From contig JAVJWO010000032.1 of NCBI GenBank assembly GCA_040222015.1, positions 1 through 18,256 on the forward strand: a stretch of 18,256 nucleotides of DNA, written 5' to 3'. Positions 2,105 to 16,330 of the stretch are shown here, one piece after another (the first letter of the stretch is position 1; each line of letters opens with the position of its first letter). Source of the DNA: Coleofasciculus chthonoplastes F2-STO-03 (lineage in GTDB: Bacteria; Cyanobacteriota; Cyanobacteriia; Cyanobacteriales; Coleofasciculaceae). The translations under genes were made by a program, and so were the position numbers. Under the pieces are notes generated by a model, which was given only the letters and a program-made list of their open reading frames with translations, was not told the DNA's origin and made no database searches.

Positions 2105-2710
2105 TTAGCGTAAAGCTCGCCCATCTGTTCCTTTTTCGATACGTTGAACAGACGGCGAAGTCCGATCATGTTCTACCTCAATGACAGCTAAAATTCCTTC
2201 CTCAACAGGGACAGCACGCCATAGGGGAAAATAGGGTTCAATCTCAGGAAAATTACCGATCCGGTCTGTCAACCACTGGTACATTTCCCGTGAGGGTACA
2301 ATAAGCAAGCCTCCAACAATTGCCCGTTGAAGGAGTCCAATGGCAATTTTGTTTAAAGCGCGGTGGCTTGAGGATACATTACCTGTTTCCCATTCAACTA
2401 CGAATTGTCTATCATTAGAGAGTGTTTTAACCGCATCTACTGGACCAGGGCGAGCATTCGTTATGATCTTCATACGTTTTTCCCGTTGCCAGCCAAACTG
2501 CTCATCTAGGACAGTTATACAGCTTTCCTTTATCGGTTTTACACCATTTTTATGTTTCTTGTTTTCCTCACGCAGGATAAACTGATTATTGCCTGGGGGC
2601 CAGTGAACTGCATGAATCGCAGTATAAACTTCTTCTAGGACTTGCTCAAATTCCTCTGTGTCTGCAAACTGCCCTTTTCTAATCAGAAATTCAGTCCTGT
2701 TTATCTTCAT
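2105..2710 (-). CDS. Type II restriction endonuclease, BamHI family (predicted GGATCC)
   Basis: Collinear with recalled BamHI motifs: WP, NGVKPIK, WQREK, GPVD, EWETGNVSSSHRALNK, LTDRIGNFPEIEPYF, KGTDG; catalytic E..D..ExE set present. Confidence 0.93.
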   Translation of the reverse strand: MKINRTEFLIRKGQFADTEEFEQVLEEVYTAIHAVHWPPGNNQFILREENKKHKNGVKPIKESCITVLDEQFGWQREKRMKIITNARPGPVDAVKTLSNDRQFVVEWETGNVSSSHRALNKIAIGLLQRAIVGGLLIVPSREMYQWLTDRIGNFPEIEPYFPLWRAVPVEEGILAVIEVEHDRTSPSVQRIEKGTDGRALR

Positions 2711-2930
2711 TCAGCAGGTTTTCTACTTCAGCCACAATGGATGCAGCCGACACACCAAGCGCCTCTGCAAGCTTGATAATCGTTGATAGGGTAGGTTGTC
2801 TTAGCCCCCCTTCCAGACGAGAAATAAATGTTCGGTCAAGCTGACTTCGGAAGGAAAGCTCTTCTTGTGAAAGGCGTTTTGCCTTCCTCAGACGCTGAAG
2901 AACCTTCCCAAATGCTTTTTCTGGCGTCAC
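2691..2930 (-). CDS. XRE-family HTH controller (C) protein of the R-M system
   Basis: FGKVLQRLRKAKRLSQEELS...LDRTFISRLEGGLRQPTL; GTG start with GGAGG RBS; directly upstream of and overlapping the endonuclease by 20 nt, divergent from the methylase. Confidence 0.9.
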   Translation of the reverse strand: MTPEKAFGKVLQRLRKAKRLSQEELSFRSQLDRTFISRLEGGLRQPTLSTIIKLAEALGVSAASIVAEVENLLNEDKQD

Positions 2931-2961
2931 GGTGTATCCTCCAAACTAGAGGGTATCCTGG

Positions 2962-2995
2962 TTGACGGAACGATGCAGTTGCCTATAGGCTACAA
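2962..2995 (+). promoter_or_regulatory. Candidate methylase promoter overlapped by a C-box-like palindrome
   Basis: TTGACG (2962-2967)-N18-TAGGCT (2986-2991); palindrome gttGCCTATAGGCtac (2978-2993) with a central TATA. Confidence 0.55.
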
Positions 2996-3040
2996 AAGCC
3001 TCACCCCAGTCTGATTGACATAACGGAGAAAACTTGGCTC

Positions 3041-4333
3041 ATGTCTGTCGCTTATCCATTGTTTCAAGCCATCGGTATCAAATCCGATGATTCAGTCGCG
3101 ATTAAGCAATTAGCGTCTAAAACAGGTATTTCTGTTGAACGACTTAGATACTACGATAAAAATAGAATTTTGCCTTCGGATACAGATTTAGATAAAATTT
3201 GTTCGGTGACAAATATTCCTCGCCTAAAACTTAAGTTGTTAATGGGTTGTCTGGATCGGAAAACCATTGCCGCCATACAGAATAAGGCTGAAGAAATTTA
3301 TGAAATTATTAAAACTGATAGTCCATCATTGCCTGCTGATACAACGACGCCAAGATTAATGTTCAAAACTGATTATGGACAGTTATATCAGGGAAATTGC
3401 CTAGATTTGATGCGCGACATGGAAGCAGAAACGGTTGATTTAGTTTTTGCCGATCCCCCTTTTAATCTCAGTAAAAACTATCCTTCAGGCATAGATGATA
3501 ATTTAAACAAATCTGATTATTTAGAGTGGTGTGAAGCTTGGCTCAATGAATGTATTCGCATCTTAAAGCCTGCGGGTAGTTTATTCCTCTGGAATCTGCC
3601 TAAGTGGAATAGTCACCTATCTGGATTTCTGAATCACCGCCTAACGTTTAGGCACTGGATATCTGTTGATATTAAATACAGATTTCCTATTGCTGGACGG
3701 TTATATCCTTCCCATTATTCACTGCTTTACTATTGTAAGGGGGAAAAGCCAAAAACCTTTCATCCGGATAGGCTTCCGCTAGAGATATGCTCAAACTGTT
3801 ATCGGGAGTTGCGCGATTACGGAGGCTATAAACATAAAATGAATCCTAGAGGTGTCAATCTAACCGATGTCTGGTACGATATTCCACCCGTTAGACACAA
3901 GCGTTATAAGCAGCGAGAAGGAGCGAATGAACTTTCTATTAAACTGATAGATCGGATTATTGAAATGGCATCTGATCAAGGAGATATTGTTTTTGATCCC
4001 TTTGGTGGTGCAGGGACAACTTATGTAGTCGCAGAGATGAAACATCGCCGTTGGCTTGGTATTGAGATTGGTTCTGTCGATGATATTTTAAGCCGTTTCC
4101 AGAAACTTGATCAGGAACGTGATTATTTACAACAGATTCGAGAGGGTTATAATTGCCTGTTTACTAACAAAACAGTGAAGGTAAGGAGGGAGAAGGGACT
4201 CTGGACTTCAGAATCGGTTAGAGAAAAAGCTCAGATGTGTGTAAAAACACAAGGGAAGGGTAAGAAGAAAGCTTTAGGTATTCAAACTGAACTGGATTTC
4301 TCAGGAATTAATAATCGGTCAAAGCTTACCTAG
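3041..4333 (+). CDS. Amino-DNA methyltransferase, beta class (M.BamHI-like, probably N4-cytosine), with N-terminal HTH-like extension
   Basis: Motif IV DLVFADPPFN precedes motif I DPFGGAGTT; LYPSHYSLLYY and TDVWYDIPPVRH; adjacent to a BamHI-like endonuclease. Confidence 0.93.
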   Translation: MSVAYPLFQAIGIKSDDSVAIKQLASKTGISVERLRYYDKNRILPSDTDLDKICSVTNIPRLKLKLLMGCLDRKTIAAIQNKAEEIYEIIKTDSPSLPADTTTPRLMFKTDYGQLYQGNCLDLMRDMEAETVDLVFADPPFNLSKNYPSGIDDNLNKSDYLEWCEAWLNECIRILKPAGSLFLWNLPKWNSHLSGFLNHRLTFRHWISVDIKYRFPIAGRLYPSHYSLLYYCKGEKPKTFHPDRLPLEICSNCYRELRDYGGYKHKMNPRGVNLTDVWYDIPPVRHKRYKQREGANELSIKLIDRIIEMASDQGDIVFDPFGGAGTTYVVAEMKHRRWLGIEIGSVDDILSRFQKLDQERDYLQQIREGYNCLFTNKTVKVRREKGLWTSESVREKAQMCVKTQGKGKKKALGIQTELDFSGINNRSKLT

Positions 4334-5370: not shown

Positions 5371-5524
5371 GCCCTATTTAATGAGGTGGACAGCATAAAA
5401 GTCGAGGAAATGGGACAAGGATTTGCCCGGAAACCCCGAAAACCGAAGCGTGAAGACACGACTACGCCAGAACAATCCTCACCGTTGCTGCTCAAAACTT
5501 GGTCATTCGAGTCTTTTACTCGGC

Positions 5525-5650
5525 GTTTCGTGTTCTGAACTCCACGTTTCGTGTTCTGAACTTCACGTTTTGTGTTCCGAACTCCACGTTCCGTGTTCTG
5601 AACTTCAGGTTCCGTGTTCCGAACTCTAAGTTCCGTGTTTTGAAGTCAAA
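5525..5650 (+). repeat. 21-bp tandem repeat x6 (consensus GTTYCGTGTTCYGAACTYCAC)
   Basis: Units start at 5525, 5546, 5567, 5588, 5609 and 5630, with no spacers. Confidence 0.95.
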
Positions 5651-5774
5651 ATGTTCCAGCAGTTGGAGCAAGGCAGAAATTGCTGTTTGAGAACCGATTT
5701 CACCTAATGCCTCGGCTTAGTACTTCTATGGTTAATTTTAATCTTTTCCTTCCCCATTTCTCCAATCCTTCAAA

Positions 5775-7298: not shown

Positions 7299-7799
7299 AT
7301 GCCCTGCACACTACTCTTTGTCTGCCTTGGTAATATTTGCCGTTCTCCCTCCGCCGAGAACATTATGAATCACTTAATTGAACAAGCGGGACTTCAAGAC
7401 AGCATTGTCTGCGACTCAGCGGGGACGGGTGATTATCATATTGGTTCTCCTCCCGATGAACGCATGACTCTCGCCGCCAGCCAACGGGGAATCATCCTCA
7501 AGGGCAAAGCCCGACAGTTTCAAGTCTCTGATTTTGAAGCGTTTGACCTGATTTTGGCGATGGATCGGGAGAATTTACGGGATATTCGGTTTCTGGATAC
7601 AAGGGGGAAGTATGTGGATAAAGTGCGATTAATGTGTGATTTTGCCACTCATCATCAGATACGAGACGTTCCTGATCCCTATTACGGGGGTCCAGAGGGA
7701 TTTAACCAGGTGATTGATTTACTCCTGGATGCTTGCGAGGGATTATTGGAGTATGTGATTAAGACCTATTCCCTACCCGCCAAAGGCAAAGTTCAATGA
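7299..7799 (+). CDS. Low-molecular-weight protein-tyrosine phosphatase
   Basis: FVCLGNICRS P-loop, DSAGT, LILAMD, VPDPYYG; likely start ATG 7299; ATGA overlap with the next gene. Confidence 0.95.
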   Translation: MPCTLLFVCLGNICRSPSAENIMNHLIEQAGLQDSIVCDSAGTGDYHIGSPPDERMTLAASQRGIILKGKARQFQVSDFEAFDLILAMDRENLRDIRFLDTRGKYVDKVRLMCDFATHHQIRDVPDPYYGGPEGFNQVIDLLLDACEGLLEYVIKTYSLPAKGKVQ

Positions 7800-9250
7800 G
7801 CTTTTTTGAGAAACTCAATGCCGCGATCGCACAGAATCAAAGTTTACTGGTAGTCGGACTTGATCCTAACCCAGAAATGATGCCCAGACGTTACTCCACC
7901 GGAGAATACTCAGGTGATCTGATGGATGGGTTAAGGGATTGGTTGCACTGGATTATCCAGCAAACCGCCGATTTAGTCTGCGCCTATAAGCCCACATTTG
8001 GCTTTTACAAAGCATTGGGCGCACCGGGACTCAACCTATTAGAACAGACACTCGCGGCGATTCCTGACTCCATTCCGATTATTTTAGATGCCAAACATGG
8101 TGACCTAAACACTAGCACTGTCTTTGCGGAAACCATTTTTACGCGATGGCGGGTTGATGCGGTTACGCTGAGTCCTTATTCTGGACAAGACCACGTTGCA
8201 CCCTTTTTAATTTATCCCGGTAAAGCCGTTTTTATTCTCTGCTGCACCTCCAATCCGGCGGCTGTGGCGATTCAGCAGTATCCCCAACCCCAAACCCCCC
8301 TTTATCTGCAAGTGGTTAAAGAAGCCAAAACCTGGGGCGCACCCGAAGATTTAGCCTTAGAAGTTGGCACAAACTCGCCAAGTATATTAGCAAAGATTCG
8401 GGCAATTGCCTCAGAACGCTTAATTTTAGCCCGGAGTATTTGGGCGGAGGGGGGTGCTGAACTCAATCAAATTTTAGCGGCTGGGTTAAATGCCAATGGT
8501 GAGGGGTTATTAATACCAGTTCCCCAGGATATGTTAGCCACAGAAGAACCCGCCACCGCGATACAACCCCTAAGAGAGGAGATAAATCAGGCAAGAGGAA
8601 AAAAGATTCAACAGGGTTCGGCTTGTGATTTATGGATGCCGGATGTCTGTTTTCTAGAACAACATCCCCATCAAGATTTAATTCTCCAACTTTATGACAT
8701 GGGTTGTATTCTATTTGGTGAATTTGTCCAAGCATCTGGGGCAGTTTTTCCCTACTATATTGATTTGCGGAAAGTTATCTCCAATCCCCAACTTTTCCAT
8801 CAAATGCTGAGTGCTTATGCCGAGATTCTGCAAGGTTTAACCTTTGACCGGATTGCTGGGATTCCCTATGGGTCATTACCCACGGCAACCGGGTTGTCCC
8901 TACGCCTGCATCACCCCATGATTTTTCCCCGTAAAGAAGTGAAAGCCCATGGGACGCGACGGGTGATTGAGGGTCACTTTGAGCCAGGGGAAACGGTGGT
9001 TGTGGTAGATGATATTTTGATTAGCGGTAAGAGTGTGATGGAGGGGGCGGCGAAGCTGGAGACAGGGGGGTTAAACGTGCAGGATATTGTCGTATTTATT
9101 GATCACGAAGGTGGGGTCAAGGATAGATTGAGGGATAATGGTTATCAGGCGCATTCCGTGTTAACGATTTCAGAAATTACCCAAACTCTGTATCAAGCGG
9201 GGCGGATTACTCAGGAACAATTTCAGGCATTTAACCACAGTGTTCAATAA
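7796..9250 (+). CDS. pyrFE: Bifunctional orotidine-5'-phosphate decarboxylase / orotate phosphoribosyltransferase
   Basis: N-half VGLDP, AYKP, ILDAKHGD, DAVTLSPY, TSNP (PyrF); C-half FPYYIDLR, RKEVKAHG, VVVVDDILISGKS (PyrE). Confidence 0.93.
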   Translation: MSFFEKLNAAIAQNQSLLVVGLDPNPEMMPRRYSTGEYSGDLMDGLRDWLHWIIQQTADLVCAYKPTFGFYKALGAPGLNLLEQTLAAIPDSIPIILDAKHGDLNTSTVFAETIFTRWRVDAVTLSPYSGQDHVAPFLIYPGKAVFILCCTSNPAAVAIQQYPQPQTPLYLQVVKEAKTWGAPEDLALEVGTNSPSILAKIRAIASERLILARSIWAEGGAELNQILAAGLNANGEGLLIPVPQDMLATEEPATAIQPLREEINQARGKKIQQGSACDLWMPDVCFLEQHPHQDLILQLYDMGCILFGEFVQASGAVFPYYIDLRKVISNPQLFHQMLSAYAEILQGLTFDRIAGIPYGSLPTATGLSLRLHHPMIFPRKEVKAHGTRRVIEGHFEPGETVVVVDDILISGKSVMEGAAKLETGGLNVQDIVVFIDHEGGVKDRLRDNGYQAHSVLTISEITQTLYQAGRITQEQFQAFNHSVQ

Positions 9251-9290
9251 GTGAACGTCCCACGCCTTAAGTTAAATTCGTGTGAAGTTC

Positions 9291-9392
9291 GTAGTTGCGC
9301 TTTAGCGCCATAAACACTATAGCGCTGACTACCAAGGTTTCTATGGCAATCTCTGCATCCTCACCGAAATCTATCGCAGAAACCCGGTTTCT
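9291..9392. repeat. Degenerate REP-like elements
   Basis: GTAGTTGCGCT (9291) and AGCGCTGACTAC (9321) imperfect inverted repeat; AGAAACCCGGTTTCT near-palindrome at 9378-9392. Confidence 0.55.
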
Positions 9393-9425
9393 TGCCCCCA
9401 CCCACATCTCAGAGAGGAAAGCAGT

Positions 9426-9854
9426 TCATCGCTTGGCTTCCCACGGATTAACCAAATCAATTCCACAATCCAAAAAGTCGCGTATGTTGCGGGTCGCTAA
9501 TGTTGCCTGGTGAACTCGGCAAATGGCTGCAATTTGTGCATCAAATTGTGAGATGGGGCGACCGATTTGTTTGCGGTAAGCTGCTATTTGGGAATAAAGC
9601 TCAGCGGCTTTTTGATCGAATGCTAAAATTCGCTCTGCCAAGTAATCCTCAAAGACGATCAATGCTCCGTCGAGCAATTTCTGTCGTCGCTGTCCTTCTG
9701 GAAGAATTTGAATACCGTACAGAATTTCGGCTTGGGTAATGCTGGTTGTGTACAGTGATGCACCGTTTTGGCTGGCTAACCATTCGCGGATGACGCTCGA
9801 ACCCCTCGGCTGAATGAGTTCCGAAATGACGTTGGTGTCGAGAATGATTTTCAT
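9426..9854 (-). CDS. vapC: PIN-domain VapC/FitB-like ribonuclease toxin
   Basis: IILDTNVISE, SITQAEILYG, ISQFDAQIAAI, LATRNIRDF, LVNPW; acidic PIN residues present. Confidence 0.95.
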   Translation of the reverse strand: MKIILDTNVISELIQPRGSSVIREWLASQNGASLYTTSITQAEILYGIQILPEGQRRQKLLDGALIVFEDYLAERILAFDQKAAELYSQIAAYRKQIGRPISQFDAQIAAICRVHQATLATRNIRDFLDCGIDLVNPWEAKR

Positions 9855-9880
9855 GGTTCGCCAAACAGGGTTTCGTCAAC
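9811..9880. repeat. 70-bp direct repeat, copy 1 (antitoxin-vapC junction)
   Basis: 69/70 identical to 10716-10785. Confidence 0.95.
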
Positions 9881-10111
9881 TCGAATGGGTTCCCGTGGCT
9901 CGATGAGAATTTCGTTGGGTTCGATCTGGCTGAAGTGTCGCTCAAAGACTGCGATGAGCCACTGACCTTCGTTTTCAAAGTTTTCGGGTTGAAGTTTTGG
10001 GGCGGGTGTGTGGGGGGTTGGGTGCAGTTCGCGATCGAGAAGCTCGAACAGTTTTTGCTTGTCGGTAGGGTTGAGTTGATGAATGGCTGGCAAGAGTTCA
10101 TTGAGTGTCAT
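9851..10111 (-). CDS. Probable cognate antitoxin (86 aa)
   Basis: ATG at 10111 with AGGAG RBS (MTLNELLPAIHQLNPTDKQKLFELL...); acidic C-terminus; ATGA coupling to vapC. Confidence 0.75.
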   Translation of the reverse strand: MTLNELLPAIHQLNPTDKQKLFELLDRELHPTPHTPAPKLQPENFENEGQWLIAVFERHFSQIEPNEILIEPREPIRVDETLFGEP

Positions 10112-10298
10112 CTCTGGCTCCTGTTGTGTTGTATCTACTATTTTGCCTTCTGAGAACGTCAGGGGTGCGATCGCCAAGCATTGGGTTGAATTGTTCCTCA
10201 AATATGTTGATTGGGGCGGTTTGCGTGATTCTGCTTTGAGTACCTGGTTCGCCTTTGATGAAGTCACTGATGACACAAGTATCAAGGAGGTATTGCAT
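10098..10298 (-). pseudogene. Truncated second VapC/PIN toxin
   Basis: MQYLLDTCVISDFIKGEPG is a PIN N-terminus; PIN-like character is lost after about 32 codons and later catalytic motifs are absent. Confidence 0.8.
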
Positions 10299-10540
10299 TA
10301 GAAAATTTCCGGTTCGCGAGGGGGAAGCAGTTCATCCCGATAGGACTCGAAAGCGGGGAAATCAGGGACTCCTTGATAAGACAAAATCGCCTCTGGCCAT
10401 TGGGACACTGAAATGGGTGGCGTTTGCAGGGTGCGGCGTAACACTTGCACAATTAAAGTAGGCAGGGGAATATTAGATTGTGTGGCTTGATGGATGAGGT
10501 CTTGTTCGAGGTCTGGCGGTAGGTCGATGGTAATTTGCAT
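10298..10540 (-). CDS. Probable antitoxin (RHH-like N-terminus)
   Basis: MQITIDLPPDLEQDLIHQA...PTLIVQVL; stop overlaps the ATG of the truncated PIN gene; GAGGA upstream. Confidence 0.75.
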   Translation of the reverse strand: MQITIDLPPDLEQDLIHQATQSNIPLPTLIVQVLRRTLQTPPISVSQWPEAILSYQGVPDFPAFESYRDELLPPREPEIF

Positions 10541-10628
10541 CGGTGATTTTCCTCAATTTATCCCGCTTCGAGATTTTATCACCCTCCATGATAAACTCAA
10601 CGAGAATTGAATGTCTGCGGTGAGGATG

Positions 10629-10711
10629 AGCTTGCCAAACAAGGACTGTAGCTTTTAATCGCCTTAAAACTCTCTTGAAATCCGGGTAAAAATGGTTAAA
10701 GCTATTGCTGT
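10629..10711 (-). mobile_element. Internal fragment of the MITE family seen at 14544-14728
   Basis: Reverse complement aligns to 14598-14679 at about 62/83 by hand (ACAGCAATAGCTT...TTTCAAGA...CTACAGTCCTTGT.TGG.AAGCT). Confidence 0.75.
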
Positions 10712-10715
10712 TTAA

Positions 10716-10785
10716 TGAATGAGTTCCGAAATCACGTTGGTGTCGAGAATGATTTTCATGGTTCGCCAAACAGGGTTTCGTCAAC
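10716..10785. repeat. 70-bp direct repeat, copy 2 (orphan antitoxin end plus vapC start)
   Basis: 69/70 identical to 9811-9880; encodes MKIILDTNVISELI on the minus strand. Confidence 0.95.
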
Positions 10786-10801
10786 CCAGAAACTCTCTTT
10801 C

Positions 10802-11038
10802 TCAACTTTCAGTTATCAAGATGGTCAGGGCGCGTTTTATGGCTTCCTCTTCTGTGGTACAAATTCCACTGGCTAGGATGCGATCGAGCAAATTACGGAT
10901 ATCTGGACGGGATAAAATCTGATAGGCTTTGCGTTCAGCATGGCGTTGTTCTAAAGCGGTTGTTAGCGTCATCACATCTTGATGAATATCGTCAGCCGAT
11001 AGTAATTCTGTATTGGGTTCGGGAACTTGTTTAGTCAT
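10802..11038 (-). CDS. Small hypothetical protein, possibly ParD/CopG-like antitoxin
   Basis: 78 aa ATG-started ORF; IRNLLDRILASGICTTEEEAIKRALTIL resembles the helix-SG-helix pattern of RHH antitoxins. Confidence 0.55.
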   Translation of the reverse strand: MTKQVPEPNTELLSADDIHQDVMTLTTALEQRHAERKAYQILSRPDIRNLLDRILASGICTTEEEAIKRALTILITES

Positions 11039-11107
11039 GGTTTACCTTCCGTAAGTTTCTGCAAGGGTTTCAATTAATCGATCGCTGTAATAAGTGCCTT
11101 GTTGCTG

Positions 11108-11173
11108 GGCTAACGCTTTCCCCGTCGCCAAGTGCCACAGTTCCAGCGTCTGATCATCAGAAGCGGAAGCAGC
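11108..11173 (-). pseudogene. Isolated WD40-repeat coding fragment
   Basis: Manual translation AASASDDQTLELWHLATGKALA, preceded by an in-frame TAG and with no start codon. Confidence 0.7.
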
Positions 11174-11303
11174 CTATAATGAATTTAATCGTAATATTGA
11201 GCAGGACATTCTATGACAGCAAAACGGCTAGAAATCGAGGGAACTTGGGAAGAGATTGTCAGCCATTCCGATGCTTTAGCTGGAGTTTATCTGTTCTCTA
11301 CTT

Positions 11304-12653
11304 CTAAAATTGATTGTTCACATATTCTTTAATTGCTGGTGGGAGGCTGAAGTGCGATCGCCCCTTGTCCTTTACTTTTTCAATTAAACTCCGTTTTAAT
11401 AAGGATTGAACGGCTTTTAATAAGTCATAATCGGAGACAGGTAAATCTGTCGGATGTGCGGGAAGTTCCACAGCTTTTTCTTGGCTGGCTAACCAATAAA
11501 GCGCTTGTTTTTCTATCTGCGATAAGCGTTTATAATGTTCCTGCAATATTATTTCTAAATCTCCCAAGAACGGACTCTGACAAGATAAAAAGTCAGCCAC
11601 GCTGCCGTCAAATAGTTCTTGAATCGTATTAGCTGCTATCTTTAGCCATAAAGGATTGCCGCTATAAAGTTGGATTAATTCTGACCATCTATCTGGATCA
11701 GTTAATTCCATTTCGGTTAATATTTCTTGAGCCGATTCGCCTAAACCATCAACTTGTAAGGTGCGACAAAAATTTTTTCTACCTTCTAATGTGGCAACTT
11801 CTATGGGTTTTTCCCAACTCATAATCAGCAGGCAACTGTTGTGATGCGTGGTGGCTATTTGTTTAATAAATTTGCTATAATCTTGGTAGTCTGTTCGGTA
11901 AGTACCGGCTAATTTACCACTGGTAAATTGTTCTTGAAAGTCATCGAGGATAATCAGGCAACGATGCGATCGCAAACAGTCGATTAAAGATGGGGATTTT
12001 GTTTCCGTTTGTGGTGAGAGAAATTGGATTAAATTAGTTTTGAGCGATTTTAAGGTGGGGGCATTGGTACAGTTGCGCCATAAAAGGCGATCGAAGTTAT
12101 CTTTAATTTGTGTCACCAGTTCGACTGCCAAAGCAGTTTTGCCAATACCCGATAAACCGATAACGGTGACAATGGGGATTTTATCTTCGAGTATCCATTG
12201 TTTAAGGGTGTTGAGTTCTTGAGTACGGTTGTAGAGGCGATCGCTTTTTGGAACTTCCGTTAAATCGTGGCGTTTTTCTGGTTGAACCTTATCATAATTG
12301 GTAGTGGAGCGTTTTTTTACGGTTTTTGGATAGGGTAAATTTTCATTACAAACATTGATGTCGCCATTACCAATATGCAGATTTGCAATGTGCGAATATC
12401 TCCCATTTTCTACAATAGACCTAAGATTAGATTTTCTAACATCTTCCTCGAAAACATCTGAGAGAAGTTGCCATAATTTCCAAGCTTCTTTTCTGATATG
12501 ATGTTTGCTGCAATGTTTATTATCTCCTATTTGTTCGTAAGTTTCCCGTTGCCAAACCCCCTCTAAAATAGCCTTTTGCAGAGAATCCAGATGTTTTCCG
12601 GTTTTCGCGAACACGCGATCGTCAGTCCACTTTAAAGCTTCTTCAATATCCAT
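11304..12653 (-). CDS. STAND/NB-ARC ATPase with N-terminal HTH-like domain and no C-terminal sensor repeats
   Basis: Walker A GLSGIGKT, Walker B LIILDD, GNPLWL (GxP), terminal winged helix AVQSLLKRSLIE; N-terminal LDSLQKAILEGVWQRETYEQIG...HIRKEAWKLW. Confidence 0.88.
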   Translation of the reverse strand: MDIEEALKWTDDRVFAKTGKHLDSLQKAILEGVWQRETYEQIGDNKHCSKHHIRKEAWKLWQLLSDVFEEDVRKSNLRSIVENGRYSHIANLHIGNGDINVCNENLPYPKTVKKRSTTNYDKVQPEKRHDLTEVPKSDRLYNRTQELNTLKQWILEDKIPIVTVIGLSGIGKTALAVELVTQIKDNFDRLLWRNCTNAPTLKSLKTNLIQFLSPQTETKSPSLIDCLRSHRCLIILDDFQEQFTSGKLAGTYRTDYQDYSKFIKQIATTHHNSCLLIMSWEKPIEVATLEGRKNFCRTLQVDGLGESAQEILTEMELTDPDRWSELIQLYSGNPLWLKIAANTIQELFDGSVADFLSCQSPFLGDLEIILQEHYKRLSQIEKQALYWLASQEKAVELPAHPTDLPVSDYDLLKAVQSLLKRSLIEKVKDKGRSHFSLPPAIKEYVNNQF

Positions 12654-12680
12654 AGATTTGACATGGAGTTTAAGCAGGGC

Positions 12681-12813
12681 TTGTATCCTATCTTATCATA
12701 CCTTTTCCTATTTGGGGGATAAAATCATATTTTTTTCTATGCGACATGGTTTTAAAATATCCTACAAAATCCTATTTTTCGGGGTTGTCAGACAGAAATT
12801 TAGGTAGCAAAAT
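12681..12813 (+). promoter_or_regulatory. 10-bp-phased direct repeats and candidate promoter of the RiPP operon
   Basis: WTCMTA-like hexamers at 12685/12695/12705, 12724/12734 and 12759/12769; TTGTCA (12785-12790)-N17-CAAAAT (12808-12813). Confidence 0.45.
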
Positions 12814-12858
12814 ATTGTTTAGGCAGCAAATTTAATTTTGGATCAAAAGAAAATACCA

Positions 12859-13131
12859 ATGGTCAAGACATTAGGGTTTCAAGAAAAGGTTTCGGACAAG
12901 TTACCTTTTGCAATGCTTTTTGCGGTAGAACCTGCTTTTACCAGCATTCCTCAAGAGTTACTAGAACAGAAACTTTGCTATAATGCCGTACTCCAGATTA
13001 ATGAGGAATCCCAATTAAATCTGATTGTCGGTGGACAAACAAGTACAAGCATGAGGCAATCAACTACTACTGGCATTATTTGGTGGGACTCAAAAGATGA
13101 TGATGACAACATGAATGATGAAAGCCAGTAA
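12859..13131 (+). CDS. Graspetide (ATP-grasp RiPP) precursor peptide, 90 aa
   Basis: Directly upstream of the ATP-grasp gene; leader LPFAMLFA, YNAVLQIN, QLNLIVGG; core QTSTSMRQSTTTGIIWWDSKDDDDNMNDESQ with T/S donors followed by D/E acceptors. Confidence 0.85.
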   Translation: MVKTLGFQEKVSDKLPFAMLFAVEPAFTSIPQELLEQKLCYNAVLQINEESQLNLIVGGQTSTSMRQSTTTGIIWWDSKDDDDNMNDESQ

Positions 13132-13154
13132 ATTGATAATTATATAACCAACAC

Positions 13155-13188
13155 AGATAGGTGGCTATCAATTTATAACCGCCTATCT
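13155..13188 (+). terminator. Stem-loop downstream of precursor (mRNA stabiliser or leaky terminator)
   Basis: AGATAGGTGGCTAT-N6-ATAACCGCCTATCT, 12/14 Watson-Crick plus one G-U pair; no strong U-tract. Confidence 0.65.
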
Positions 13189-13248
13189 AGTTAAACCTGC
13201 CTTCAATCGAATTTTTTAATCAGTTTATTTAGTTCGAGCAATTGTACC

Positions 13249-13332
13249 ATGGTGTAAATATTAGGAACTCAAGAAAGTAGTTTGATAATATGGCATGGAG
13301 ACAAAGACTACGATAGTATAGATGATGAATGA
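13249..13332 (+). pseudogene. Degenerate second precursor core
   Basis: MV*ILGTQESSLIIWHGDKDYDSIDDE* aligns with STTTGIIWWDSKDDDDNMNDE of the precursor. Confidence 0.6.
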
Positions 13333-13391
13333 AAATTACTGATAAAGTCCTCAATATAAAATTTATTAAAGAATAGTTAATCCTCAATAAT

Positions 13392-14381
13392 ATGATTAAG
13401 CCAATTTTAGTAATTACGGATAAATGCGATGTTCACGCAGATTTTGTCACCATTGAACTCAGAAAAATAGGTGGCGATATTGTCCGCATGAATACTCAAG
13501 ACATGGGTTTTAATTCAGACTTTACTTTGGGAAAATTAGACTTAGCAGAACCTTGGCAACTTCAATTTCACTTTAAAGACTCTGACAAAACAGTAACATC
13601 AGATAGTTTTGATACTATTTGGTATCGAAAACCAGAACCAGTTGAGCCAGACCAAAGCATTACCGAAGAACACGCACAGGTCTTTGTTAAAGAAGAGTAT
13701 AGCTACTTTTTACGCTCATTTTATAACCTGTACTCCCACAAAACATGGGTTAATCCGTTTTGGAACTTAAAACACGCCAGCCAAAAACTGCCAAACTTAG
13801 AACTAGCAGTAAAGTTAGGCTTAAAAGTTCCTAAAACCTTAATTACTAACAATCCGGAAGTCGCTAGAGAATTTGGCGAGCATTGTCACTGGAATTTACT
13901 GGTGAAAACATTTCATTTTTCCGGTTTTGTGGTGAATCAAACTGAGGCATGGCACTGCTTTGCTAAACGCATCGATAAAGAGCAGTTTATTCAATTTGCA
14001 GAAACCATAAATTTTGCCCCCACGTTTTTACAGCAATACATTGATAAATCCATAGAGTTAAGGGTGACAATTATCGGAGAAGAAGTTTTTACCGCTGCGA
14101 TTCATTCTCAGGAAATTGAAAAAACTAAGTCGGACTGGCGTGCAATAGATAGTTACCAGATTAAACACACTGTTTACGATTTACCAGTTGATATCGCGCA
14201 GAAACTTTTAGCTTTTAACCGTCATTATTCTTTGGTCTTCTCAACTTTCGATCTAATTCTCACTCCTGAAGGGGAATACTACTTCTTAGAATGCAACCCT
14301 AACGGTCAATGGTATTGGATTGAGGAATTGACACAAATACCGATGGCTAAAACAATGGCTAAATTGTTAATGAGTATTTGA
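13392..14381 (+). CDS. ATP-grasp peptide maturase, MvdC/MvdD (graspetide synthetase) family
   Basis: ILVIT..DVHADFV, IWYRKP, WVNP..ASQKLPNL..A..LGLKVPKTLITN, QQYIDKSIELRVTIIG, DWR, DLILTPEGEYYFLECNPNGQWYWIE. Confidence 0.93.
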   Translation: MIKPILVITDKCDVHADFVTIELRKIGGDIVRMNTQDMGFNSDFTLGKLDLAEPWQLQFHFKDSDKTVTSDSFDTIWYRKPEPVEPDQSITEEHAQVFVKEEYSYFLRSFYNLYSHKTWVNPFWNLKHASQKLPNLELAVKLGLKVPKTLITNNPEVAREFGEHCHWNLLVKTFHFSGFVVNQTEAWHCFAKRIDKEQFIQFAETINFAPTFLQQYIDKSIELRVTIIGEEVFTAAIHSQEIEKTKSDWRAIDSYQIKHTVYDLPVDIAQKLLAFNRHYSLVFSTFDLILTPEGEYYFLECNPNGQWYWIEELTQIPMAKTMAKLLMSI

Positions 14382-14543
14382 TTTTTATAGATATTATAAG
14401 AGGGTTATTATTTAGCATTTTTAGCAGGGATTAATCCTATAATTTAGCAACAAAAAATCAGGTAATTATAAACTGGAAAACTCTGCAACTCATCCAGAAG
14501 TTCATCACGCCGCCGCCCCATATTTGGAAAAGTTACTGAATTC

Positions 14544-14728
14544 GGTTCTTCCGTATTTAGTGTGCTAAATTGTTAGTTTGATTTGCCAGAATATTGGACA
14601 GCAATAGCTTAATTATTTTCATCCTAATTTCAAGAAATGCTTGAGGTAGTTTTTAACTACAGTCCTTGTCTGGTAAGCTTCCTAGTTCATTGGAACTGAT
14701 AGTTTAGCACACTAAGTCCGGAAGATCC
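14544..14728. mobile_element. 185-bp MITE-like element with 35-bp TIRs (ISL3-like termini)
   Basis: 14544-14578 vs 14694-14728 match 29/35 inverted; ends read GG(T/A)TCTTCCG; no target duplication visible. Confidence 0.7.
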
Positions 14729-14759
14729 CGTTTTTAGCTCAAATAGCATAATTGTCGCG

Positions 14760-15068
14760 ATGAAGAACCTTTCCCAAGAACAGCTTCGCAATTTTGAGTT
14801 AGCCCATAAAGCCGAGATAGAGACAATCACCCAGGTTTTGACGCGGATAACCACAAAAAGTCCAGAGGTGATTAAACCCTACTTGGATGCAATACTTAAG
14901 CGCTTAGTCCAACTCCAACAGGTGCAGCTTCCTTTATATGAAACAGCCAGTCCAGAAGAATTGGCATAAGCCTTTTATTTGTGGGCTGCAAGTCATGAGT
15001 ACCATTCACCCCTGTTATCAGATTATGCTGTGAGCCGGGAAAGTATGTACTCAGACAAGGAATCATAG
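14760..15068 (+). pseudogene. Antitoxin-like small protein with internal nonsense codon
   Basis: Frame continues after TAA at 14967-14969 as AFYLWAASHEYHSPLLSDYAVSRESMYSDKES*; PLLSDYAVSRESxY is recalled as the C-terminal motif of cyanobacterial proteins that precede PIN genes. Confidence 0.7.
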
Positions 15069-15187
15069 CATCCTAAACGAAATTAAGTTGAGACGGAACA
15101 AATTATAGAATAAAAGGATATGAGTAAAAAAGCTACTCCTCATTTAGATGCAAAATAGAGATAAGCGCTGAATTGCCAACTACCCCC

Positions 15188-16330
15188 ATGAGTTACTGTC
15201 TCAATCCTAACTGTACCAACCCCCAAAATCCCGCCGGAACCAAATTTTGCCTCACCTGCGGGTCAAAAGTACGCCTCAAGGAACGGTATCGCACGGTTCA
15301 ACCCTTGGGACAAGGGGGTTTTGGGCGAACATTTTTAGCCGTGGATGAGGATAAACCGTCTCATCCCCCTTGTGTGATTAAGCAGTTTTTCCCCCAAGCC
15401 CAGGGAACCAGTACGGTACAAAAAGCGGCGCAGTTATTTACCCAAGAAGCAGTACGGTTAGATGAGTTGGGTAAACATCCCCAGATTCCAGAACTGTTGG
15501 CATATTTTTGCCAAGATAGCCATCAATATTTGGTGCAAGAGTTTATTGAGGGCGAAGATTTAGCCCAGGAGTTGGCAAGGAAAGGCGCATTTACAGAAGC
15601 CCAAGTTCGCGATGTGTTGAATAATTTGTTGCCTGTTTTACAATTCGTTCATCAACATCATGTTATTCACCGCGATATTAAACCGGAAAATATTATTCGT
15701 CGAAATCGCGATAAGCAACTATTTCTGGTTGATTTTGGCGCATCAAAAGTGGCGACAGGTACAGCGTTAGCCAGAACCGGGACAGTGATTGGTTCGGTGG
15801 GGTATGTTGCACCGGAACAAAGTATCGGGAAAGCCGTGTTTGCGAGTGATATCTATAGTCTCGGTGTGACCTGTATCCATCTGCTAACGGGAATCCATCC
15901 CTTCGACTTGTTTGATGTGAATCAGGGGGTTTGGATATGGCGACAAGGGTTGAAAAATCCAGTCAGCGATCGCGTGGCTAAAATTTTAGATAAGATGTTA
16001 GTCAATGCGACGAATCAGCGCTATCAATCTGTGGCGGAGATCCTCCAGGATTTACAGTCTCAAACCCCTGTAGCTAAGGTTAAACCGGCAAAACCTGCAC
16101 CTCCTCCGGCTTCAGCGCCAATTAAGTCACAACCCAATCAACCTCACTATGGGAAAGGTTTAGATAAAGAATTAGCGGATTTAAAGTCTGAATTTTTGCA
16201 GCAACCAACATCTAAAAATACGCCGCAAAAATCGACACCGCCTACTAAAGGTTCTGCCAATACTCAAAAAACCAAAAGTCAAATTGAGCGGGAATTGGAG
16301 GATATAAAGTCTCAGTTTTTGGGTGAATAG
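15188..16330 (+). CDS. Hanks-type Ser/Thr protein kinase with N-terminal 4-Cys motif
   Basis: MSYCLNPNC...FCLTCG; GQGGFG, VIK, HRDIKPEN, DFG, APE, SDIYSLG; Pro-rich tail. Confidence 0.95.
   Translation: MSYCLNPNCTNPQNPAGTKFCLTCGSKVRLKERYRTVQPLGQGGFGRTFLAVDEDKPSHPPCVIKQFFPQAQGTSTVQKAAQLFTQEAVRLDELGKHPQIPELLAYFCQDSHQYLVQEFIEGEDLAQELARKGAFTEAQVRDVLNNLLPVLQFVHQHHVIHRDIKPENIIRRNRDKQLFLVDFGASKVATGTALARTGTVIGSVGYVAPEQSIGKAVFASDIYSLGVTCIHLLTGIHPFDLFDVNQGVWIWRQGLKNPVSDRVAKILDKMLVNATNQRYQSVAEILQDLQSQTPVAKVKPAKPAPPPASAPIKSQPNQPHYGKGLDKELADLKSEFLQQPTSKNTPQKSTPPTKGSANTQKTKSQIERELEDIKSQFLGE

Follow-up and report, generated by a model that had tools for sequence, protein, structure and literature searches.

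Analysis of a cyanobacterial DNA region from Coleofasciculus chthonoplastes F2-STO-03 revealed a compact cassette in which a peptide gene is followed by a gene for an ATP-grasp ligase. The explanation to which we lean overall is that this ligase staples the peptide into a hairpin of about four esters with a strain-variable loop. The two genes are conserved and linked in a family of patchy distribution, and the loop of the cassette differs from strain to strain.

Gene layout of the cassette

The window analysed here is the whole stretch of 18,256 nucleotides. Genes at its start, recognised from their translations, are of the psbD/psbC type, and the window is cyanobacterial. The cassette and its parts are as follows.

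11303..14417, no strand: whole low-GC three-gene cassette, likely horizontally acquired
11304..12653, minus strand: divergent gene for an HTH and NB-ARC protein, 449 aa, likely regulator of the cassette
12654..12858, no strand: divergent intergenic region, likely with both promoters within it
12859..13131, plus strand: graspetide precursor, 90 aa, with a leader of 59 aa (ending in G58-G59) and a core of 31 aa
12904..12924, plus strand: leader motif P16-A22 (PFAMLFA), ligase-binding helix by analogy
13036..13128, plus strand: predicted core Q60-Q90, with donor arm T61-T71, variable loop, and acceptor arm D81-E88
13072..13098, plus strand: predicted displayed loop G72-D80 including IIWW, hypervariable across the family
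13249..13332, plus strand: broken second precursor gene, recognised by its translation and by aligning its DNA with the unbroken second precursor of Arthrospira platensis L001/L082
13392..14381, plus strand: ATP-grasp graspetide synthetase, 329 aa

An earlier note on this DNA had described a 90-aa peptide followed by one ATP-grasp ligase, and both open reading frames (12859–13131 and 13392–14381, plus strand) were confirmed. The precursor frame gives 90 aa from its ATG and would give 97 aa from an alternative TTG at 12838. One precursor is indeed intact, as that note had it, but the broken second one at 13249–13332 was overlooked. The divergent HTH-NB-ARC gene and the low-GC cassette common to A. 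platensis had also escaped it. A genome search found this ligase as the single one of graspetide type. The cassette is devoid of a peptidase or exporter gene, and seven matches to C39 peptidases, five of them strong, were found in the genome.

The ligase and its relatives

The ligase matches PF21068 and PF08443. Four graspetide maturase models match it, all below their cut-offs (among them TIGR04187 with 220 of 350 bits, MvdC with 192 of 425, and MvdD with 175 of 475), and its five PDB matches include 5IG9, 5IG8, 7M4S, and 7MGV. Graspetide synthetases use ATP to phosphorylate a carboxylate, onto which they direct a Ser, Thr, or Lys nucleophile. In PsnB, a D(F/W)R loop and core-binding arginines are needed (10.1101/2021.03.09.434688). 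In our 102-row alignment, K172, Q214, R224, D248, D287, E300, and N302 are invariant, and R79, K132, and R250 are present in 100 to 101 rows. D248-W249-R250 is also present in the ligase, and the graspetide catalytic residues are kept; D248-W249-R250, R79, and R224 are the apparent counterparts of the PsnB residues, matched by motif with PsnB itself left unaligned. The enzyme thus has what defines the graspetide class, namely, a RiPP-type ATP-grasp ligase with the D(F/W)R loop and conserved Arg and ATP residues. To judge from these sequences, the ligase very probably modifies the precursor.

Among the 80 genome loci listed, seven full-length matches had a ligase identity of 52–94%; these are from A. 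platensis, Okeania, Roseofilum, an Oscillatoriales bin, a contig labelled Flavobacterium, an Acidobacteriota bin, and a Chitinophagales bin. A matching precursor lies just upstream of the ligase at all seven loci with at least 52% ligase identity, and a protein search returned 31 homologous small proteins; a conserved small ORF of the T/S...D type, which the earlier note expected beside close ligase homologues, is therefore present. The ligase is 93–94% identical to the A. platensis members, and the precursor is 74–76% identical to the first paralogues there.

Phylogenetic trees were constructed with FastTree (95 rows) and IQ-TREE (44 of those rows) from sequences that include no characterised enzyme, and the group labels in them derive from precursor motifs at the loci. 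The 14 family ligases form one clade (SH 99 in FastTree; 100/99 in IQ-TREE), apart from microviridin- and plesiocin-type ligases in both trees. This clade is sister to that with the PLMMHL leader (SH 95 in FastTree; 93/89 in IQ-TREE, just under the starred threshold), and the sister group of the family ligases is probably group 17. The best alignment score to eight group-17-type ligases was 58, under the threshold of 70 of the published groups. The placement in a tree or network that had been proposed thus sets the family apart in a clade of its own, whereas single linkage at 70 gave a less clear-cut result: there is no direct edge to group 13, but the family is chained through L008, L093, and L007 (70.5–71.7, then 71–79) to ligases of proteobacteria with precursors that Carter assigns to group 13, in a set that contains no actinobacterial ligases.

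The precursor and the predicted topology of its product

The composition that had been described for the last 31 residues (60–90; positions 13036–13128) was found to be correct: eight Ser/Thr at residues 61–71 precede the hydrophobic stretch and seven Asp/Glu (six D and one E) at residues 77–88 follow it. As a control for chance, 2 of the 20,225 small ORFs of the genome passed a tail filter (ORFs of 50–130 aa with at least six S/T and then at least five D/E), the precursor being one of them and the filter having been defined after the precursor was seen. Stronger evidence than this control comes from the homologous small proteins and from the matching precursors at the seven loci. The precursor has a single, unrepeated core, and a search of Pfam and NCBIfam with it matched no family. 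G58-G59 closes the leader, Leu lies at -7, and Ile lies at -4, a pattern that we take to resemble double-glycine leaders; G59 is found in 33 of 34 homologues and position 58 is G or A, so that G/A58-G59 is conserved. Further upstream, P16, F17, F21, and A22 are invariant in all 36 aligned precursors, and a low-confidence model has a leader helix at residues 17–21. The peptide combines the leader motif Phhx(1,2)h, as defined in PMC8939145, with conserved donors N-terminal of conserved Asp/Glu acceptors, as in a graspetide precursor.

For the core, 35 sequences were taken and 34 were parsed (P0063 missed the anchor pattern); P0010, P0062, P0064, P0065, and the peptide of locus L005 were omitted. 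T69, D81, and D87 are each present in 34 of 34 cores, position 71 is T or S in all of them, and D83, E88, T61, S62, T63, and S68 are each present in 33. All length variation lies between G72 and position 79, and the arms have a fixed spacing in the 34 cores. An AlphaFold2 model of the precursor (36-row alignment; mean pLDDT 57.7, pTM 0.23) has a core free of secondary structure and was uninformative as to topology.

Albusimiditide and fuscimiditide are established stem-loops, each made by a single ligase, in which a loop separates a Thr-rich arm from an Asp-rich arm. Because the arm spacing is fixed and insertions and deletions occur only in the loop, we read the family core as a stem with a free loop, like these two, and the product is probably a nested ester hairpin. 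In albusimiditide, the links are T9-D42, T11-D40, T17-D34, and an inner link to D32 (PMC12291112), and the fuscimiditide ligase accepts loops of 4–72 aa (10.1101/2021.05.19.444834). The same spacing was found in group 17, where, among the 36 of 47 sequences that were parsed, S63 is present in 36, T/S71 in 35, S61 in 32, D81 and D83 each in 35, and D87 and D88 each in 36. Since the donor positions 61, 63, and 71 and the acceptor positions 81, 83, 87, and 88 are retained in group 17, four nested esters are predicted. We assign them tentatively as exactly T71-D81, T69-D83, T63-D87, and T61 (or S62)-E88. Strongly conserved S68 is unexplained by this pairing. The calculated monoisotopic mass of the core Q60-Q90 is 3591.50 Da when unmodified and would be 3519.46 Da after four losses of 18 Da. 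In heterologous tests of other graspetides (Gra-5 and Gra-8), conserved residues were under-used.

An arrangement that we regard as rather unlikely is a cage of interlocked esters, like that of rosaritide or the microviridins, in which S68, T69, and T71 or T61–S64 would be linked crosswise with D81, D83, D87, and E88. There is a precedent in rosaritide, the N-terminal donors of which are interlocked with C-terminal DxDxD acceptors as S8-D22, S9-D26, and T11-D24 (PMC13097080). Furthermore, the adjacent donors (T61-S62-T63 and S68-T69) and acceptors (D87-E88) exceed the needs of a simple ladder, and the near-invariant residues are never all used by any single register. However, a donor arm of 11 residues and an acceptor arm of 8 residues, with fixed spacing and with insertions and deletions only in the loop, are as in the characterised stem-loops.

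The pairs predicted for the nested hairpin break the strict equal-spacing rule of group 13, as their position sums are 152, 152, 150, and 149. A hairpin obeying that rule would have S62-E88, T63-D87, S68-D82, and T69-D81, together with T71-D79 in most homologues and possibly a Lys-Asp83 amide in members with Lys67; it is a sub-case of the hairpin reading. In a register scan, the sum of 150 gave the most donor-acceptor pairs (a mean of 5.0 possible, compared with 3.0 for the sum of 152) and left D83 unused, and the equal-spacing rule predicted albusimiditide correctly (PMC12291112). Nevertheless, this strict register seems improbable: D82 gives way to Pro or Ser in 4 of 34 cores, position 79 is Lys in the precursor and five others, D83 (33/34) would lie opposite Gln, Arg, or Lys, and group 17 has Gly at position 62 in 25 of 36 sequences.

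Variability of the loop

Among 30 precursors, we found 28 distinct loops; loop length ranges from 3 to 8 aa, and Trp occurs in 4 of 34 loops. Because the loop varies in this way, IIWW is one variant of a hypervariable loop and not a family motif. The earlier note regarded IIWW as the displayed loop, which did not hold: the IIWW loop is specific to this copy, and the predicted loop, G72-D80, is wider than IIWW. Of 26 pairs whose leaders share 90% identity or more, none had the same loop, although most rows are representatives of 90% clusters, a bias towards difference. Within one A. platensis cluster, four members are identical over a leader segment of 55 residues, and yet each has its own loop. 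The IIWH loop of the second paralogue was considered as a source of IIWW by recent gene conversion; this was unsupported, as the codons differ (by eye).

The divergent HTH-NB-ARC gene and transcription

The 449-aa protein encoded on the opposite strand has an N-terminal HTH (HTH_VMAP-M9-like) and an NB-ARC ATPase domain (Pfam E=1e-11) and is devoid of a C-terminal repeat domain; its atlas neighbours carry PF26355 and PF00931. Of the 10 family loci, 9 have this divergent HTH-NB-ARC gene upstream, as do 49 of the 53 group-17-type loci that could be scored. It was found at none of 12 microviridin, none of 5 plesiocin-type, and none of 22 proteobacterial group-13-type loci, and at 5 of 44 others; many of the loci in these counts are close kin. 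The group-17 versions inspected are mostly short and HTH-only, without the ATPase domain. Two loci within the ligase clade of the family have, in its place, a divergent HTH gene of the XRE type, and L006 has none. The N-terminal domain of the NB-ARC protein has 11 matches in the genome, and paralogues of about 70% identity lie opposite unrelated operons, both in same-genus genomes and in the host genome. A gene specific to graspetides was thus rejected, because its paralogues also front unrelated operons, and the protein is likely to be a generic regulator of mobile cargo, to judge from its distribution.

That the protein is instead an obligatory partner of the ligase or a receptor for the peptide, in a partner-dependent or signalling system, seems to us most improbable. 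The tight linkage in two ligase clades, the existence of partner-dependent synthetases (MirC, PMC13097080), and the lack of a sensor repeat domain in the NB-ARC protein would fit such a role; the paralogues at unrelated operons, the absence of the ATPase domain from most group-17 versions inspected, and the clade loci with an XRE-type gene or none argue against it.

A scan for promoters and terminators performed no better than shuffled sequences (6 sites against 7.2 expected and 1 terminator against 1.2), and aligning seven intergenic regions revealed no clear shared operator. In A. platensis, RNA contigs from six runs of five studies end at 2529–2590 and restart at 2759–2773 of L001, flanking the divergent intergenic region, and two runs of unrecorded kind span that region. 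These contigs hint weakly at two divergent transcripts from the orthologous locus and bear on A. platensis only. The depth values of the RNA contigs are unable to rank genes and were not used, and uncovered parts inside genes were ignored.

Probable horizontal acquisition and possible decay of the cassette

The cassette (11303–14417, 3.1 kb) has 87–92% nucleotide identity to A. platensis L001/L082, and the alignment ends at those bounds. Its GC content is 0.370, compared with 0.454 for the genome, and 1.3% of 2,373 windows are as low. With a precursor profile, matches were obtained in 3 of 301 genomes of the order, consisting of the host genome, one true match, and one in G002 that we treated as a chance match (E=1e-3, internal stop); the same profile search did not find the precursor in eight same-genus genomes. 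The site, between a pyrimidine gene (7796–9250) and a kinase gene, is occupied by other cargo in the eight same-genus genomes that were inspected. A repeat search of 10900–15200 found no terminal repeats at the cassette ends. The identity to A. platensis DNA, the low GC content, and the failure to find the precursor in the eight same-genus genomes indicate that the cassette was likely acquired horizontally.

The remnant of the second precursor has a stop at codon 3, and its start and end match the intact second A. platensis paralogue; an in-frame deletion of about 183 bp has removed most of the leader and the donor arm. It is very unlikely, in our opinion, that the whole cassette is likewise decaying cargo in its host and gives no mature peptide. 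The broken second precursor, the NB-ARC gene split in two A. platensis assemblies, the loci L085 and L086 lacking the precursor and the first 134 ligase codons, and the lack of a dedicated peptidase could be taken as signs of decay. However, the frames of the precursor, the ligase, and the NB-ARC gene are unbroken, every conserved active-site residue is present, and four sequencing runs have one extra base at the L001 break, suggesting an intact NB-ARC frame in those strains.

Relation to published graspetides

The locus and the family are already catalogued in two surveys, and we found no characterised member of the ligase clade. In the supplements of Makarova 2022 (PMC8939145), the precursor family is "cluster1198", with six A. 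platensis precursors. This cluster is marked "known" because one of its six members matched the group 8 motif of Lee; three A. platensis ligases have no Lee or Iyer match in the same survey. The A. platensis C1 precursor EKD07310 differs from the precursor described here at four positions within residues 1–60 (by eye). In the RODEO dataset of Carter 2026 (PMC13097080, supplement file 2), row 20428 is an identical peptide with identical coordinates, and at least 11 rows belong to the family, the group cell being empty in all 11. In both surveys these are table entries, and the main texts of PMC8939145 and PMC13097080, in the parts covered, discuss neither the family nor its topology, its loop variation, the HTH-NB-ARC gene, or the broken precursor. 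Our literature search found no experimental study of the family in the graspetide literature (e.g. PMC11626197, PMC9576775, PMC10125368, and PMC13039773), with subscription papers mostly outside the search, and the parts of the literature that it covered held no pairing of a graspetide with a divergent HTH(-NB-ARC) gene. The suggestion of an uncharacterised group made in the earlier note stands insofar as we found no numbered or characterised group with the same core; the locus and family themselves are not new.

Group 17 (Microcoleus-type) resembles the family in its layout with a divergent HTH gene and in the spacing of 61/63/71 and 81/83/87/88, but this spacing skeleton is all that the cores have in common. 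Its ligases are about 29–35% identical to those of the family, and the family does not match either its PLMMHL leader or its SGSW[CS]T...S[TS] / DxDxxEDD core; where group 17 has G62-W64-C/S65, S70, and E86, the family has S62-S64, S68-T69, and G/Q/N86. The group 17 label is borne by 2 of 42 matching RODEO rows, and we found no characterised member.

Group 13, which includes fuscimiditide, amycolimiditide, and albusimiditide (10.1101/2021.05.19.444834, 10.1101/2023.06.21.545981, and PMC12291112), shares with the family a single ligase and a single core with a Thr/Ser-rich arm, a loop, and an Asp-rich arm, and is the best working model for the product. In contrast to group 13, the family loci inspected have no O-methyltransferase and no conserved loop Asp-Gly, the loop is shorter, and the family is not actinobacterial.

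The microviridins (group 1, MdnB/MdnC) have the same enzyme fold and a Pro-Phe-led leader helix and are also cyanobacterial. Unlike them, the precursor has no TxKYPSD motif, one ligase is found in the genome, it falls below the MvdC/MvdD cut-offs and in a separate clade, and a divergent HTH gene is found at 0 of 12 microviridin loci; the locus is thus of non-microviridin type, as had been noted. Rosaritide (group 21, PMC13097080), like the cassette, has N-terminal Ser/Thr donors, C-terminal DxDxD acceptors, and one ligase, but it is interlocked, requires a partner resembling a PPIase, and comes with a PCAT of its own, whereas the cassette has neither such a partner nor a PCAT. As for group 8, the Legionella-labelled rows that were listed (29 of 101) belong to it and have a different, short leader (by eye, in that subset of group 8), and the A. 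platensis ligases have no Lee match and are ungrouped in the file of Carter.

Possible mechanism and significance

By analogy with the known mechanism and from the conserved active site, the leader helix P16-A22 would dock on the ligase, which would phosphorylate core carboxylates with ATP for attack by core hydroxyls, closing the predicted esters around the loop G72-D80. A C39 peptidase/transporter encoded elsewhere may then cut after G58-G59 and export the 31-residue core, and the divergent HTH-NB-ARC protein may control transcription. The product would most likely serve as an extracellular conflict peptide, its target set by the loop. Protease inhibition is the role that we would put first, by analogy with microviridin, plesiocin, and chryseoviridin, at somewhat less than an even chance. 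Rosaritide showed no antibacterial activity in PMC13097080, and bioactivity is not treated in depth in the fuscimiditide paper (10.1101/2021.05.19.444834); the proposed role is therefore an analogy only.

A specialist may not be surprised by these results, since graspetides are well studied, stem-loops are known, and the peptide is already in a public prediction table. Nevertheless, the cassette is a compact test case, a two-gene and apparently tailoring-free system, and some 30 natural cores, with differences mainly in the loop, could serve directly for studies of topology, loop tolerance, and target specificity. As A. platensis, which is used as food, has members of the family, it would be easy to try to detect the native product. 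The pairing with a divergent HTH(-NB-ARC) gene gives a handle on the timing of peptide production.

One speculative possibility is that the family and group 17 form a single cyanobacteria-centred lineage of four-ester hairpins and a natural library for loop display, in which the leader, stem, and ligase of a mobile, HTH-NB-ARC-controlled cassette stay constant while each strain rewrites the loop against changing targets. If so, the targets would be proteins of grazers, competitors, or phages, the ligase would be a naturally loop-tolerant macrocyclase, and edible Arthrospira platensis would carry, and probably transcribe, a loop-display cassette.

Insertion site and neighbouring genes

The region at window 9250-15173, bounded by an orotate decarboxylase/phosphoribosyltransferase-like gene and a Ser/Thr kinase gene, is an insertion hotspot. 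At the same site, the genomes of the same genus (L212-L219) carry toxin-antitoxin pairs, further HTH-NB-ARC genes that accompany unrelated operons, and also protease-like or methyltransferase-like genes, the names of these cargoes being assigned by eye. The following features were found in the window, within and outside this region.

2105-4333: genes for a BamHI-like restriction endonuclease and an N4/N6 methyltransferase, with an HTH controller gene
about 5499-5690: tandem-like short repeats, unit about 21 nt
9426-11038: PIN/VapC toxin and small gene upstream
about 10098-10298: second PIN gene, disrupted
14544-14728: inverted repeat, 35 nt, 83%, arms 115 nt apart

A 70-bp piece is repeated within the PIN/VapC region, and an intact copy of its second PIN pair is present on contig C206. 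The inverted-repeat region occurs in numerous copies in this genome and in genomes of the same genus, and is likely a small mobile element. The restriction gene set, whose methyltransferase has an N-terminal HTH, lies directly after psbC, and the about-21-nt repeats give repetitive ORFs on both strands.

Rearranged cassettes and a probably mis-binned contig

The cassette of A. platensis (L001 and L082) has 1.03-kb direct repeats on both sides, each of which includes a Uma2-family gene.

L001, 1-1028 and 4541-5568: direct repeat pair
L082, 1487-2518 and 6022-7053: direct repeat pair

The identity between the two copies is 100% in L001 and 99.8% in L082. This arrangement looks as if the cassette had been integrated by a single crossover; the duplicated flanks may alternatively be an assembly duplicate. 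In two other loci (L085:4744-4746 and L086:606-611), a deletion joins the NB-ARC gene from codon 18 to the ligase from codon 135, with loss of the precursor gene. In the small proteins P0064 and P0065, leader residues 1-26 of the precursor family are joined to an unrelated 73-residue sequence. Contig L003, labelled Flavobacterium, bears the cyanobacterial cassette, whose precursor is the same as that of L083 and near that of L004, and is probably mis-binned.

Related precursors and ligase clades

A separate precursor family, with the core W/C-x-RS-x-TTG...DPDEDxD, adjoins related ligases in metagenomes and in bins labelled Heliobacteriaceae, Heimdallarchaeota and Saprospiraceae (the last being L008).

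L007:3641-3898, L020:671-886, L093:2678-2893, L106:1522-1725: precursors of this family
L084:1695-2654, L087:2484-3443: gene of 315-319 aa with a weak glycosyltransferase-9 match

The latter gene, conserved 3' of the ligase in these two loci, possibly encodes a tailoring enzyme. The divergent HTH gene is present in a third cyanobacterial ligase clade too (L171 and L179), and the L179 precursor is similar to rows labelled group 43 in the RODEO dataset (PMC13097080). In the precursor family, Cys replaces S64 in Okeania/Trichodesmium-type cores (P0041, P0048, P0050 and P0051; four of the 34 parsed), and 24 of 36 sequences of group 17, the probable sister clade, have Cys at position 65. It is conceivable that the Cys at either position forms a thioester or a disulfide.
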